64,000 nucleotides of DNA from Mobula hypostoma. Lineage: Eukaryota. The translations under genes and the position numbers were made by a program. Below, piece by piece: positions 6,319-58,645 of this stretch. Each line of letters starts with the position of its first letter. The stretch's first letter is position 1. The stretch lies in contig NC_086108.1 in NCBI RefSeq assembly GCF_963921235.1, forward strand, positions 93,002,001-93,066,000, written 5' to 3'. Under the pieces are notes generated by a model. The model did not search any database, was not told where the DNA came from, and saw only the letters and a list, made by a program, of their open reading frames with translations.

Positions 6319-6864
6319 GAAATAGTGCTTTCCCAATGTAAATGATGAATAAACTTTTCTCAGGCTTCTAGCTGGGTATAGGTATCAATTTTAACCGATA
6401 TTTCAATGATAAACTTTGCCATCTTCATCAGGGTTGATGCCTGGACATCTCTAGTCCAGTGGTATTTATACTCCCGTCGTCTGTCCCTCCTGATTGGATG
6501 AGGACTAATCAATCAGGTTTCTGCTATCCCATCCTGTTTACAATCAAATTCCAGTTACAGCAAGACCTTTGTCTTTATTAAAATTCTTTTCTAGTTTTAT
6601 TTCAATGGCTTCCTTCACCAGGCAGTCCCAAAGGTGAAGGTCTTGCTCTAAGTAAGAACTGGAAGTCAATTGTAGACAAGGTGGAACAGATGAAACCTGG
6701 TTGGATGAGGACTAACCAATTAGGAGGGATGGATGACGGGGTATAAATACCACCAGACTAGACATCCCAGGCATCATCCCTGGTGAAGGTGGCAGAGGTT
6801 GTCATTCAAACATTGGTTACAATCAATAATCTATACCTGACTGGAAGCCCATGAAGAGTTTATT
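6319..6864. mobile_element. Fold-back Penelope-like insertion (second PLE family), 15-bp TSD
   Basis: Inverted arms about 6344-6570 and 6640-6868; centre reads FWDCLVKEAIEIKLEKNFNKDKG on minus (PLE GIY-YIG C-terminus); direct repeat catctaaagaaaaca at 6304-6318 and 6865-6879. Confidence 0.85.
6393..6435 (-). ncRNA. Minimal type I hammerhead ribozyme motif (PLE-associated)
   Basis: AACC-CUGAUGA-(imperfect stem II AGAUGGCAAAGUUUAUCAUU)-GAAA-U-AUC-GGUU; stem I AACC/GGUU; palindromic stem III AUAU. Confidence 0.65.
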
Positions 6865-7639
6865 CATCTAAAGAAAACATTTGGAAAGACATTATGAGCA
6901 AGTTTGATAATTTCACATTACAGCTTATTCTCTATTGCCTAATAAGGAAGTTGAATATAATTTCAGAAACATTAGTGACACATTTGTTGGCTATGCCCTT
7001 CACAAGATTTATATTTCTCCGAGTTACGTTAATTGTGCATGCTTTACTTAGTCAGACATGACGGTAAGTCAGTAAGTCAATAACTAAGTTGTACGCACTT
7101 CCTTTTTTAATCAGAACACTAGTAGCATGGTGTATGAGTGTTGAGGGTGAAGTAGTAAGGGGTCACAATGCTCATTGTCAGATGGTAATGTGGGACAGTC
7201 TAAATGGTCTTTCGTGATTGGTAATTTTCAAAGTGCTTGCATTTTTAACCAAGAATAAAGTAAACCACAGACAAAAACATATGTGCTCGACCCTTAGTAA
7301 ACAATGATAAAGTTTAGCTGTGCAAAGTACACTGGTCCTATTGTTAGGACACACATCATGACTTCCAAACAGATGCCTCTGTGGTGCAGACTGAAATGTA
7401 TATATTTCAGTTAAATATATCCACAAAGCTTTGGGAAATGAATCAAGCTTACCCCTGTGTGTATCAGACTGTAAGCAATTAAAGTAGCTAGTAGTATATT
7501 GGCTTGATAAACACAGCAAATTACAACTTGGACTGGAGTCTGGGAAGTTTTTGACTTAAAATCTGATTACCAGCTTTCTCAAGTCTAGATCAGATACATT
7601 TTCAACCTCTCACGGCTACGGGTGGAAGTTCCCACTTAC

Positions 7640-10484: not shown

Positions 10485-10635
10485 ATTTTTGAAGAAGTAA
10501 AAAAATGTAGCATAATTTATTCATGATGAGAGTGACCTTGTTATAATTTATATGGAATTCAGGAAATCTTAGACAAGGCTAGTCCAGAAGGTTAAAACCC
10601 ATGGGATCCGAGGAAAGTTGGCAAATTGAATCCAA

Positions 10636-10826
10636 CACACACAAGATGCTGGAGGAACTCAGCAGGCCAGACAGCATCAATGGAAAAGAGTACAGTTGAT
10701 GTTTCAGGCCGAAACCCTTCGGCAAAAGACTGTGCTCTTTTCCACAGATGCCTGACCAGCTGAGTTCCTCCAACCTCTTGTGCGTGTTGCTCGGATTTCC
10801 AGCATCTGCAGATTTTCTCTTGTTTG
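10636..10826. mobile_element. Short Penelope-derived fold-back insertion, 13-bp TSD
   Basis: Arms tgctggaggaactcagc / gctgagttcctccaac; TSD aaattgaatccaa (10623-10635) and aaattggatccaa (10827-10839), one mismatch. Confidence 0.8.
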
Positions 10827-10904
10827 AAATTGGATCCAATGTTAACTTGGGAATAGGAGCAGAAAATGGTGGTGGAAGGCTGGTTTTGTGATTAGAATTT
10901 TGAG

Positions 10905-29099: not shown

Positions 29100-29540
29100 G
29101 AACTTCTCGATGGTCAGACTTTTAAATTCTGAGTCCCATTCCTGTTCTGATTCTTTTGTGCCACAATGAGGCCACCATCAGCGTGGAGGAGCAACACATA
29201 TTCCACCAGGGTAGTCTCCAACATGATGACATGAATATCGATTTCTCCTTGGAGTAAACAAAAATGTTCCTCTACCCTCTCTTCTTCTTCATATTCCCCA
29301 CCCTGGCCTCTTACCTCTTCCCTACCTACTCATCATCTCCCCCTGGTGCCCCTTCTCCTTCCCCTTTTCCCATGGTCCACTCTTCTTTCCTATCAAATTC
29401 CTTCCTCTCCAACCCTTTACCTTTTCCACTTTCACGGCTTTACTTATCACCTTCTAGCAATCTTCCTTCCCTTCCCCCACCTTTTCATTCTGGCATCTTC
29501 CCCCTTCCTTACCAGTCCTGAAGAGGTGTCTTGTTGACCA
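29100..29540 (+). mobile_element. Penelope 3' fragment
   Basis: Decayed EATxxVEEQH / GSLQxDxMNIDF region, pyrimidine-rich UTR, truncated cagtc-ctgaaga motif. Confidence 0.75.
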
Positions 29541-41460: not shown

Positions 41461-41840
41461 CTATACCTTTGCTTTAAAATGCCTAACAAAATTCAAAACT
41501 TACATTCACATGTTCAGCAACTCCACAAACACGTAGTATATTGAGATACTTGGGTGAGTCAGATTCTGCTCTACTATCCTACCTTTCTCTTGGACTTTGT
41601 AGGCAGGATGGAGTTTGTCAGCCACTCTCTGCTGTGCCGTGTCAGCTCTCTCATCCACTTTCTAAAGAAGTATTCAGTTTTGGTAGTTGACACAACAGGC
41701 AAAACTAGTTTTATTGACCATTTGCTATTGCCTAAGGGTCAATAATACTGATTTTGTCTTGAATTGCTGCAACCTGTCATCAATTAAATGCAGCACATGA
41801 TAAAACTTAACAGTCAACAAACCTGTCTTACTATATTTCA

Positions 41841-42327
41841 AGCAACACACATCAAAGTTGCTGGTGAACGCAGCAGGCCAGGCAGCATCTATAGGAAGAG
41901 GCGCAGTCGACGTTTCAGGCCGAGACCCTTCGTCAGGACTAACTGAAGGAAGAGTGAGTAAGGGATTTGAAAGTTGGAGGGGGAGGGGGAGATGCAAAAT
42001 GATTGGAGAAGACAGGAGGGGGAGGGATAGAGCCGAGAGCTGGACAGCTGATAGGCAAAAGGGGATACGAGAGGATCATGGGACAGGAGGTCCGGGAAGA
42101 AAGACAGGGGGGGGGTTGACCCAGAGGATGGGCAAGAGGTATATTCAGAGGGACAGAGGGAGAAAAAGGAGAGTGAGAGAAAGAATGTGTGCATAAAAAT
42201 GAGTAACAGCTGGGGTACGAGGGGGAGGTGGGGCCTAGCGGAAGTTAGAGAAGTCAATGTTCATGCCATCACCAGCAACTTTGATGTGTGTTGCTTGAAT
42301 TTCCAGCATCTGCAGAATTCCTGTTGT
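41841..42327. mobile_element. Young Penelope insertion with inverted segment, 13-bp TSD
   Basis: TSD ttactatatttca at 41828-41840 and 42328-42340; perfect 31-bp inverted repeat 41837-41867 / 42269-42299; minus body encodes DGMNIDFSNFR-stop plus a UTR nearly identical to 45355-45650. Confidence 0.92.
41904..41941 (-). ncRNA. Minimal type I hammerhead ribozyme, core apparently intact
   Basis: UAGUC-CUGACGA-AGG(GUCUCGG)CCU-GAAA-C-GUC-GACUG: stem I UAGUC/GACUG, 3-bp stem II, loopless palindromic stem III (ACGU), GUC cleavage triplet. Confidence 0.8.
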
Positions 42328-42982
42328 TTACTATATTTCATTAGTATTCACAATTAATGTCAAACTCAAAGTCAAATTAAATTTATTACCAAAGTATACA
42401 TACATGTTACCATATACTACCTTGTGATGCATTTTCCTGCAGGCATTTACAAGACAAGAAAGAAATACAATAGATATTATATTTAAAAAAAACAAAAACT
42501 AACAACCAATATGTAAAGGAAGAAAAACTGTGCAAATATAATATAAATAATATGGAGAATATGAGTTCTGTAGAGTCCTTGAAAGTGAGTACATAGGTTG
42601 TGGAATCAGTTCAGTGTTGAAATGAGGGAAGATATCCATATTGGTTCAGGAGCCTAATGGTCATAGGGTAATAGCCGTTCCTGAATCTGCTGGTGTGGGA
42701 CCTCCTGATTCAACCTAAATGAAGACTTACTGCATAGTTTGAAACTAGATTCATTGATTCTTTAGTCTCAAAACTCTTTGATCTATACAACACTTTAGTT
42801 TACTTTCAGAACTTCCAAAGCCCGCTACTTGTTTTCAGATATTAACCACCCTTGATGGACCTGGCCAGGGTTTGATCATGGCAAGGTTTTCTTTGAGTTC
42901 CTGACTCAGGGTCTTCTTCAGTGATTGCTCTCTGAAGTCACTATTGATGTTCCTCTCATAAAGTACCCTTTTATACATTTCA

Positions 42983-43178
42983 AACACAAGAGATTCTGCA
43001 GATGCTGGAAATCCAGAGGAACACAGACAAAATGCTGGAGGAATTCAGCAGATCAGGCAGCATATATGGAAAGGAATAAAGTGTCGACATTTTGGAAGGG
43101 TCTCAGCATGAAGCGTTGACTCTTTATTCCTTTCCATAGATGCTGATTTCCGCCAATAGTTTGTGTGGGTTATTCTGT
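42983..43178. mobile_element. Short Penelope-derived fold-back insertion, 14-bp TSD
   Basis: TSD ttttatacatttca at 42969-42982 and 43179-43192; arms atggaaaggaataaagtgtcgac / gttgactctttattcctttccat. Confidence 0.82.
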
Positions 43179-44074
43179 TTTTATACATTTCATCACATAC
43201 AGTACATTCCAGGCCTTGCTGAATTCTTTATCACTATTCACACAACCATATATCCAATCCTTACCCACCTGAGCACAACTTTCTTTAACTCCAAATTCCT
43301 CCCAACTCCATCCGACTATGATTTTAACTATTTGCTTCATTAATTGCTAGACTGTGCACTGTACTCCATCAAATGTCCTTTTGCTGTTGCCCTGAGATTG
43401 AAATTTTGATATTCATCTTTATTTGAACCAGATATACTTCCTCTAATTGGAGCATTTTCTTCAGTTTTCAATGAAATGATTGGTACTGAGGTTATGCCAT
43501 TTTGCGCCATCATCTGTCTTGATGGGTCAATTGCAAGAAATATGAATAGAATTTTGTACAAGTTCCAAACAGGATTTTTTTTGCAATGTTGTTTACAACA
43601 TGAATGCAAGTTAATTTATTGTTTGTTCCTCATGTGCCATGTTGTATGATGTGGGTGATCATGGTCTTTTGAACATAATTGTTCTTGGCAAATTTTTCTG
43701 CAGAAGTGGTTTGTCATTACCTTCTTCTGGGCAGTGTCTTTAAAAGACGGGTGACCCCAGCCATTATCAATACCCTGGCGTCAGTGGTCACATATCCAGG
43801 ACTTGTGACATTCACTACTGCTCCTATGACCATCCACCACCTGCTCTCATGCTTCATGTGATCCAGATCGGTGGGTCTAAGCAGGCACAACACCTTGCCC
43901 AAGGTTGGCCTGCAGGCTAGTGGAGGGAACCCGCGCCCTAATTTCATTTATAAAGAATAAATTAATGATTCTGCCACAAAGGAAATGATTTTCTTCTCAT
44001 GAATTTTCAAAATACTATGAAATAAGTAACCTGAGAATCTTTTACCATTGGTCTGACTAGATATTCTTTGAAAT

Positions 44075-44303
44075 AAAAAAAACATAATTGCTGGTTGTAC
44101 TCAGCCGGGCAAACAGCATCTATGGAGAGAGAAATAGAGTTAGCCATTCAGATTGCTGACTTTTTGTAAGAATCTTAATGAAGGATTCTTGATCTAAAAT
44201 GTTGACTCTATTTCTCTGCTGCCTGACCTGCTGAGCATTTCCCACACTTCCTGTTTTTATTTCACATTTGCAGCATCTAGAGACACTTTGGTTTCCACTT
44301 AAC
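44075..44303. mobile_element. Older Penelope-derived fold-back insertion, 11-bp TSD
   Basis: TSD ttctttgaaat at 44064-44074 and 44304-44314; arms gagaaatagagtta / tgactctatttctc. Confidence 0.65.
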
Positions 44304-45285: not shown

Positions 45286-45354
45286 AGTGGCAGCTTCATT
45301 TGCTGTAAGTGGGGTTAAGGAGAGCAATGGAATCAACTCCAACATTCTGCTAAG

Positions 45355-46026
45355 TTCGAGGGGGAGGGGGAGATGCAAAATGATAGGAGAAGACAGGAGG
45401 GGGAGGGATAGAGCCGAGAGCTGGACAGGTGATAGGCAAAAGGGGATACGAGAGGATCATGGGACAGGAGGTCCGGGAAGAAAGACGGGGGGAGGGTGAC
45501 CCAGAGGATGGGCAAGAGGTATATTCAGAGGGACAGAGGGAGAAAAAGGAGAGTGAGAGAAAGAATGTGTGCATAAAAATGAGTAACAGATGGGGTACGA
45601 GGGGGAGGTGGGGCCTTAGCGGAAGTTAGAGAAGTCAATGTTCATGCCATCAGGTTGGAGGCTACCCAGACGGAATATAAGGTGTTGTTCCTCCAACCTG
45701 AGTGTGGCTTCATCTTTACAGTAGAGGAGGCTGTGGATAGACATGTCAGAATGGGAATGGGATGTGGAATTAAAATGTGTGGCCACTGGGAGATCCTGCT
45801 TTCTCTGGCGGACAGGGCGTAGATGTTCAGCAAAGTGGTCTCCCAGTCTGCGTCGGGTCTCACCAATATATAAAAGGCCACATCGGGAGCACCGGACGCA
45901 GTATATCACCCCAGTCGACTCACAGGTGAAGTGATGCCTCACCTGGAAGGACTGTTTGGGGCCCTGAATGGTGGTAAGGGAGGAAGTGTAAGGGCATGTG
46001 TAGCACTTGTTCCGCTTACACGGATT
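45355..46026 (-). mobile_element. Penelope-like element fragment encoding an uninterrupted GIY-YIG endonuclease domain
   Basis: ORF 45616..46059: CKRNKCYTC, GVIYCVRCSRCGLLYIGETRRRL, RLEEQHLIFRLGSLQPDGMN; 3' UTR follows. Confidence 0.93.
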
Positions 46027-46114
46027 ACACAGATCAGAAGGACATAAACATAACCCCACTATTTAAGAGAGGATGAAGAGATAAAATAGGAGACTACAGA
46101 CCAGTTAGCCAACA

Positions 46115-51090: not shown

Positions 51091-51892
51091 AGATCATTTT
51101 CTCACTCTTTCTAACTGCTCTTTTAAGCTATCAATCAGATGACCTCTACAACTTATTACCATGGCAACTCTGGTTCTACTCTATCAGAGACAATCCCTTT
51201 GTCATGGAACATAAAGCATAAAACAGTGCAACATAGTAACAGACACTTCAGCCCATATTGTTCAAACTTGTACTTACGTGCATAACTAATCACCTTTGCT
51301 CAAACAAGATCCATAATCCTTCCATTCTCTGCACATTCATGTGCCTATGCAAGCACATCTTGAACACTTCTATCATATTTTCCTCTACTATCACAGCTGG
51401 TAGTCCAATCCAGGAACCCGCCAGCCTTTGTGTAGTAAAACTTGCCCCATCCCACACACTCTTTAAACATCCCCTCTCATCTTTAATGCATTCCCTCTGG
51501 TATTAGACTGGCCCCATCTCCTTCTCCCCTCAGCAATTTTAAACTACCTTGAAAAAGGATTTTTGACCTAAAACGTTAGCTGTGGAAGTTAGGCTGTTCC
51601 AGGTCATTGGTTCATGGGATTGGATGTATGTGGAGCAGGAGGCACGAGGAGGCCCAAGGGCAAGAGAATAATGCACCCGGAGTTCAAGCCTGAAGTTTGG
51701 AGTCCCATCATCAGTTAGTCCGAGGTACGATACCAAAGATCGAAGCGTAGCAGTAAAAATGTGAACCAGGGTGTAACACTTGAATTTTACATTCTATGAC
51801 TGCCGATATTCATCCACATTGCTCATAAGTATAAGGCTGATTAGGACTGATATAGGGCTTTGGCCTGAAACGCTGACAAGTCCATTCCACCA

Positions 51893-52150
51893 ACACAAGA
51901 TATTCTGCAGATGCTGGAAATCTAGAGAACCACGCACAAAATGCTGGAGGAACTCAACAAGTCAGGCAGCATCTCTGAAGGGGAATCAATAGTCAACTTT
52001 TTGGGCTGAGACTCTTCGGCAGGACTCATGAAGAAGCATCTCTACCCCAAACATCGACTGTTTATTCCTTTCCACCTTTTGATGATGCTCGACTCCCTGA
52101 GTTCCTCCAGCAGATTGTTTGTTGCTCCAGATTCCAGTACCTCTTGTGCA
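51893..52150. mobile_element. Decayed Penelope-derived fold-back
   Basis: Arms tgctggaggaactca / tgagttcctccagca with back-to-back decayed hammerhead cores at about 51990-52060; no TSD seen. Confidence 0.7.
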
Positions 52151-58453: not shown

Positions 58454-58645
58454 GTGCACACTTCCCAATCCCATTAAAGCCAAGTGTGCACACTTCCCAA
58501 TCCCGTTAAACCCAAGTGTGCACACTTCCCAATCCCGTTAAACCCAAGTGTGCACACTTCCCAATCCCATTAAAGCCAAGTGTGCACACTTCCCAATCCC
58601 ATTAAAGCAAAGTGTGCACACTTCCCAATTCCGTTAAAGCCAAGT
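58454..58645. repeat. Minisatellite, 6 x 32 bp
   Basis: Unit gtgtgcacacttcccaatcccRttaaaSccaa, head-to-tail with no spacers. Confidence 0.95.

Follow-up and report, generated by a model that had tools for sequence, protein, structure and literature searches.

What is a 38-nt minimal hammerhead motif doing on the minus strand of this part of the Mobula hypostoma genome? Does it cut transcripts of the locus, is it a chance resemblance or a structural mark, or is it simply cargo? In the window (the whole stretch of DNA analysed, 64 kb), the motif occupies 41941-41904, with the letters given in a preliminary description. Very probably it is the hammerhead that a young Penelope-like family of Neptune type, very abundant in a ray, has in its pseudo-LTR (pLTR), brought here as a passenger of a 5'-truncated insertion, and cleavage at the locus is unlikely. 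The parts of the motif are as follows.

41941-41937, minus strand: 5' strand of stem I
41936-41930, minus strand: core positions C3 to A9
41929, minus strand: extra A between positions 9 and 10.1
41928-41925 with 41920-41917, minus strand: stem II, 4 bp, with a loop of 4 nt
41916-41914, minus strand: core positions G12 to A14
41913-41910, minus strand: A15.1-C-G-U16.1, the loopless palindrome ACGU
41909, minus strand: C17, with the predicted cut at 41909/41908
41908-41904, minus strand: 3' strand of stem I

All 11 fixed core positions of minimal hammerheads (min-HHRs) are present, and H17 is C. Stem I has 5 bp, its terminal pair being U·G, and both it and the 4-bp stem II can form when the isolated 38-mer is folded. 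The palindromic C15.2-G16.2 is present, loop 3 is absent, and the extra nucleotide between 9 and 10.1 is the A at 41929. The core, stems I and II, the GUC triplet and the loopless ACGU are therefore where the preliminary description had placed them, and its cut position, 41909/41908, agrees with the one predicted from the numbering. What it had overlooked is the pair 10.1-11.1, which is G·U, whereas G-C is highly conserved in min-HHRs.

A strict minimal-hammerhead descriptor finds two sites on the two strands of the window, at 41936 and 6431; the conserved G10.1-C11.1 pair is described as such but stands outside this descriptor. The descriptor search that had been suggested thus recovers the hammerhead at 41936. 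The other site belongs to a second, unrelated minimal hammerhead at 6436-6394 on the minus strand (core from 6431), with the palindrome AUAU and a G10.1·U11.1 pair of its own. It follows a frame that ends in LVKEAIEIKLEKNFNKDKG, belongs to an inverted pair of 70% identity (inverted self-match 6344-6868), and is probably from another Penelope-like family; we take the end of that frame to resemble Penelope/Poseidon endonuclease ends.

The motif at 41941-41904 lies inside an insertion with recognizable parts, and a close relative of this insertion is found nearby.

41841-42327, minus strand: whole insertion, 487 bp, a 5'-truncated Penelope-like copy (apparently Neptune-type) with an inverted, tail-bearing arm
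41828-41840: left target-site duplication (TSD), 13/13 identical to the right copy, with a 4-nt microhomology to the element end
42328-42340: right TSD
42235-42271, minus strand: last 11 codons and stop of the GIY-YIG endonuclease frame (DGMNIDFSNFR*), an end shared with the sister frame and with protein P0002
41942-42234, minus strand: pyrimidine-rich 3' UTR / pLTR body, upstream of the hammerhead
41841-41903, minus strand: pLTR end (63 nt) downstream of the hammerhead, up to the tail-less end point
42269-42327, plus strand: inverted arm, 59 nt, a copy of the element 3' end plus a "tail" of ~32 nt (42296-42327)
45352-46062, minus strand: sister copy of the same subfamily, 3.4 kb away, with 8 differences in 301 nt (97% identical)

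Read along the minus strand, the order is inverted arm, last codons, 3' UTR, hammerhead and 63 bases. A 3-nt microhomology (42269-42271) links the inverted arm with the direct part, the stop codon of the GIY-YIG frame lies 294 nt ahead of the hammerhead, and C+T make up 78% of 42240-41937. No tandem array was found at the locus. The insertion has an inverted pLTR, a tail of the 30-40-bp type on one arm and a TSD, and this layout matches the inverted-pLTR/tail/TSD arrangement already described (PMC3846280; PMC8557442).

Pyrimidine-tract + AG stretches flank the hammerhead on the minus strand, at 41959-41939 and 41903-41889 (AGs at 41943, 41939 and 41889); one stretch ends inside the 5' strand of stem I, like the D. 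virilis intron. A branch-point-like TACTCAC lies at 41960-41954, with a C-to-A variant at 41956 in 37-87% of contig depth. As for a D. virilis-like intron ending at the hammerhead, no strong donor was seen upstream by eye, and no spliced joint was among those displayed. No host exon was recognized by eye among the 101 stop-to-stop frames of at least 90 aa in the window.

To which family does the insertion belong? The sister copy stops 30 nt ahead of the hammerhead and so misses the motif; its frame (45616-46062) is open over 148 codons. Against Pfam GIY-YIG this frame scores E=0.001 and 19.8 bits, below the 22.6 cut-off, and it has two cysteines (CXXC) between the GIY- and YIG-like motifs. Together with protein P0001 it gives a linker C-X4-C-X2-C, which fits CX2-5CxxC, the zinc-finger-like linker before the endonuclease that marks Neptune and Nematis and is missing in Poseidon (PMC8557442). 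A search with the sister frame for longer proteins gave 12 matches among 147 candidates, the best five being 79-90% identical and coming from Mobula hypostoma and Hypanus sabinus. P0001, the best match (90% identical), extends upstream into the reverse-transcriptase (RT) "YIDD" region, and RT is absent from both 5'-truncated window copies, 41841-42327 and the sister. The family would thus be Neptune-type, an assignment made by linker motif and linker length rather than by an RT tree.

Pieces of the endonuclease frame also occur in the ray proteins P0004, P0005, P0011 and P0012, three of which are named as host-gene isoforms (mucin-2, divergent protein kinase domain 1C and chitinase domain-containing 1), through exonization or as an annotation artefact. 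The sister (45352-46062, minus) and another copy at 29224-29533 (plus) have abrupt, tail-less 3' ends, the former 30 nt before the hammerhead and the latter inside it. Such ends are unusual if copying begins at the tail.

The family is crowded even within this window, where a profile search detects 20 arms at 15 loci, including five inverted pairs. Three of these pairs (41841-42327, 10623-10839 and 42969-43192) have one tailed and one tail-less arm and are flanked by 13-14-bp duplications; as a control, 1/150 random position pairs scored as high as 11. Flanking duplications were absent at 4/8 loci tested. Beyond the window, 146,901 contigs of public run X1 and 116,590 of X5 were placed on 791 bp. 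Their summed depth reaches ~1e7 over the motif, as compared with 14-94 in the left flank (14-29 for X1), a figure that is not a copy number.

Four older copies are palindromic (10623-10839, 42969-43192, 44086-44291 and 51892-52148), with the inversion junction inside the hammerhead or at its 5' edge. Copies of this palindromic form might be mistaken for microRNA hairpins or enter small-RNA pathways. The best Rfam match in the window, to mir-3202 at 43060-43143 (42.5 bits, with a gathering score of 90) was rejected as a microRNA, being the centre of the inverted pair 42969-43192. Elsewhere in the window, 58454-58645 is a 32-bp tandem repeat of six copies with 95% matches.

Several observations bear on the age of the insertion. 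The 41841-42327 copy departs from the majority at four positions where the sister has the majority allele, ~1.3%, and a local duplication of the sister was rejected as its origin on this ground. CpG observed/expected is 0.46 in the element and 0.27 in the window. A contig of organism A at the left flank continues 20 nt into the element, while one of organism B departs from the window sequence at 41827, the edge of the duplication, with 68 further letters. This departure is how an empty site would be reported; the joint is not among the 15 of 469 shown. Taken together, these points suggest a young, lineage-specific insertion. The preliminary description had called the copy young, with CpGs retained: the 4 CpGs in the motif and the CpG ratio agree with this, but position 11.1-12 reads TG where the inferred ancestor has CG.

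Is the motif maintained? Diverged copies have loose ends at either edge of the hammerhead, at 41904 (X1, X5 and X10) and at 41940 (X1 and X5); 24 of 1,890 rows are shown. Among 40 variant rows shown of 82, one lies inside the hammerhead, U11.1 to C, with C at 21%, 31%, 20% and 18% of contig depth in four runs and U at 69-82%. The hammerhead is apparently a block shared by diverged subfamilies and conserved between source lineages. Low variation is not unique to it, as 41841-41890 is likewise without a shown variant row.

After insertion, upkeep of the motif is apparently nil. Among 15 aligned window segments (one, misaligned, was dropped), two keep all 11 core bases, and only 41904-41941 also keeps the palindrome. 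Positions 15.2-16.2 read CG in 4 segments, CA in 3, TG in 4 and other in 3, as neutral CpG decay predicts. Position 11.1-12 reads TG in 8 of 14 aligned segments, CA in 3 and other in 3, from a presumed ancestral CG; the pair 10.1-11.1, in the 14 segments with letters, is GU 8 times, GC 4 times, AU once and unpaired once. That U11.1 might be private CpG decay of the 41841-42327 copy was dropped, given its 69-82% share of depth in four runs. It is probably a subfamily state, though the ancestral state is inferred as CG.

Could the motif be no more than a hammerhead look-alike that arose by chance inside a repeat? The odds of this are close to nil. The covariance-model search that the preliminary description had suggested did not return a hammerhead: an Rfam scan of the window at E<=1 gives four matches, none of them to a hammerhead family. 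The folding z-score of the 38-mer is modest (-1.24), and stem covariation over 16 mostly decayed window segments scores 0.153, a value reached by 182/500 shuffles. These results would suit a coincidence, but the Rfam miss and the modest z-score are unsurprising because the motif is without stem III. Against coincidence, the strict descriptor finds no site in 150 dinucleotide-matched simulated windows, the motif sits in the pLTR as described for such elements, and its edges are the boundary of between-subfamily conservation. The simulated windows and the coincidence of this boundary with the motif largely rule out chance: the motif at 41904-41941 is a genuine minimal type I hammerhead of a Penelope-like element. 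Supported, too, is the earlier assignment to the Penelope-like kind that is proposed to act as a dimer.

Another question is whether such a hammerhead can act where it now lies. The preliminary description saw a conditional cleavage site in any minus-strand transcript. Taken as a switch, the motif would cut minus-strand RNA, from the host or driven by the pLTR, once another family RNA pairs with it in trans through ACGU. Core and palindrome are intact, the family is abundant enough that partners in trans could exist, and the motif is present in contigs of X10 (a run guessed to be RNA). X10 has no coverage in the unique left flank, which counts neither way. D. virilis Penelope suggests, by analogy, that an internal promoter might lie in the pLTR (PMC2377424). 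The predicted energies, however, speak against a switch, and a 4-bp stem III provides little affinity. The monomer folds best at -11.0 kcal/mol, with G5-G8 paired to the cleavage triplet, and the active dimer has -11.5 kcal/mol; two monomers have -22.0 and the best dimer -30.3. Forming the active dimer would therefore cost 10.5 kcal/mol relative to two inactive monomers and 18.8 relative to the best dimer, in nearest-neighbour terms that omit Mg2+-dependent core contacts and help from proteins. Within 91 or 160 nt of context, the predicted probability of stems I and II is about zero. The pair 10.1-11.1 matters for hammerhead activity; with C11.1 the active dimer would reach -16.7 kcal/mol, so that G10.1·U11.1 costs ~5 kcal/mol per dimer. 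A literature search found no rate data for G·U at this pair.

Intact partners are also missing nearby: the window has no second intact motif of the same family, the nearest same-strand remnants are broken, and the sister is without the motif. Older window copies show decay both in the core and at CpGs, and nothing points to their upkeep. Published dimers cleave weakly (PMC4209133), and at the cut site of PAc, the Poseidon element of Anolis carolinensis, RNA-seq showed no RNA ends (Frangieh et al. 2024, PMC11167929). A locus switch is conceivable in principle but unsupported because of the dimer energies, the inactive folds in context and the lack of an intact partner. We regard it as very unlikely, and the claim of conditional cleavage in any minus-strand transcript is not borne out. 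As the passenger of an insertion, the single motif would most likely be without meaningful cleavage at this locus, as far as predicted folds can tell.

If the local copy is a passenger, why does the family keep the hammerhead? It is possible, although doubtful, that the motif is kept mainly for a structural role in replication (protein binding, or a mark at which RT stops or switches), with cleavage minor or absent. This alternative concerns the biology of the family and is compatible with most of the passenger explanation. The 5' starts of 12/20 arms fall at the equivalent of 41917-41954, with five further upstream and three downstream, and none of the 20 starts comes within 5 nt of the cut; a count like this easily misses short arms. 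In the four older inverted pairs, 8/8 arms start at 41917-41946, an edge set by the junction, give or take some bases. The most favourable exponential null gives a tail probability of 1e-4, or of 0.007 if each pair counts once, for an interval picked after seeing the data. Among the 15 joints shown (of 469) from public runs, nine start at 41928-41942, which partly reflects the alignment limits of old subfamilies, whose edges also fall at 41940. PAc insertion, too, is independent of cleavage and proceeds from uncut RNA (PMC11167929). Conversely, diverged subfamilies share the catalytic core and not the stems alone, and transcription starting just upstream, with an RNA 5' end there, would produce a like pile-up.

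Arm starts pile up at the hammerhead; therefore the copies were made from RNA still holding the core. Behind the pile-up there may be a stall or strand switch at the fold, or a transcript that starts nearby. A more specific proposal, which we consider somewhat less likely still, is that the hammerhead marks copy ends rather than an RNA cut, with RT on uncut RNA stopping or switching at the fold, or the transcript starting just upstream. If this were true, copy-end marking would mass-produce palindromic, tail-asymmetric, TSD-flanked elements of ~150-250 bp centred on a ribozyme. The source lineages would have tolerated G10.1·U11.1, and the family would offer a genome-scale readout of Penelope hammerhead action in vivo. 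Among openly accessible papers, our literature search found none on rays and none on a pile-up of this kind. Head-to-head inverted repeats with palindromic junctions (PMC3846280) and opposite-strand hammerhead pairs 100-700 bp apart (PMC4209133) have already been described.

How might copies of this kind be made? As published work suggests, the element protein would nick both strands of an AT-rich target ~13 nt apart, and reverse transcription would be primed at two sites ~32 nt apart on uncut element RNA. The two primings would yield a tailed arm and a tail-less one, with microhomology at their joint. If the source element is tandem (pLTR-ORF-pLTR), two of its hammerheads could pair via ACGU into a shared 4-bp stem III, probably with the help of the element protein, and slowly trim the multimeric RNA. 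This dimer step is taken from the literature, and the window contains no full-length tandem element. The asymmetry of tailed and tail-less arms in the three inverted pairs matches the two RT start sites of PAc (PMC11167929).

Minimal, dimer-type hammerheads in Penelope-like repeats, including fish Neptune, are not new. They were described in 2014 in the pLTRs of metazoan Penelope-like elements, among them Xena, Poseidon and Neptune of fishes (Cervera & De la Pena 2014, PMC4209133). They are mostly single; monomers failed to cleave, and dimers cleaved at a low level (PMC4209133; reviewed in PMC6765202). The ray motif resembles them in being of type I, without loop 3, with a palindromic 15.2-16.2 and an extra nucleotide at 9/10.1; helix I of 4-5 bp, the location in a pLTR and the mostly single copies in truncated elements are also shared (PMC4209133). 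It differs in having G10.1·U11.1 for G-C, U holding the larger share of depth in four runs, and in a helix II of 4 bp, as compared with 6-8 bp in Schistosoma and Drosophila (PMC4209133). Judged by its letters, the motif has every defining feature of Penelope-like min-HHRs that was tested, except the G10.1-C11.1 pair. No cartilaginous fish is named in those sections of PMC4209133 and of its supplement text that the search covered. Likewise, no ray family with a Penelope hammerhead is named in the literature searched, which included the 2014 supplement text.

Non-LTR retrozymes of animals, reported in the one chondrichthyan sampled (bioRxiv 10.64898/2026.07.22.740005), are likewise non-autonomous, pLTR-derived pieces with a type I hammerhead. 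Retrozymes, however, are tandem, with a hammerhead in consecutive units, whereas the ray copy is single and carries ORF sequence. A retrozyme identity was rejected, as the locus has no tandem units and the window no second intact family motif.

The closest mechanistic relative is PAc, in which both target strands are nicked and extended, RT starts at two sites bounding the tail, and insertion proceeds from uncut RNA (PMC11167929). The ray family shares with it two end points ~30 nt apart that define the tail, an AT-rich target and copies apparently made from uncut RNA, but it belongs to a different clade, having the CX2-5CxxC linker that Poseidon lacks. The PAc hammerhead cleaves only with the element protein (PMC11167929).

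The role of Penelope hammerheads is still an open question (PMC8557442; PMC11167929). For this question the single copy at 41841-42327 matters little, as it is one of very many passengers. Its family could be of use: it is young and of very high copy number, its TSDs are sharp, its inverted arms differ in the tail and position 11.1 occurs in two states, so that computation alone could address whether copies begin at the cut site or elsewhere and whether source lineages conserve the core.
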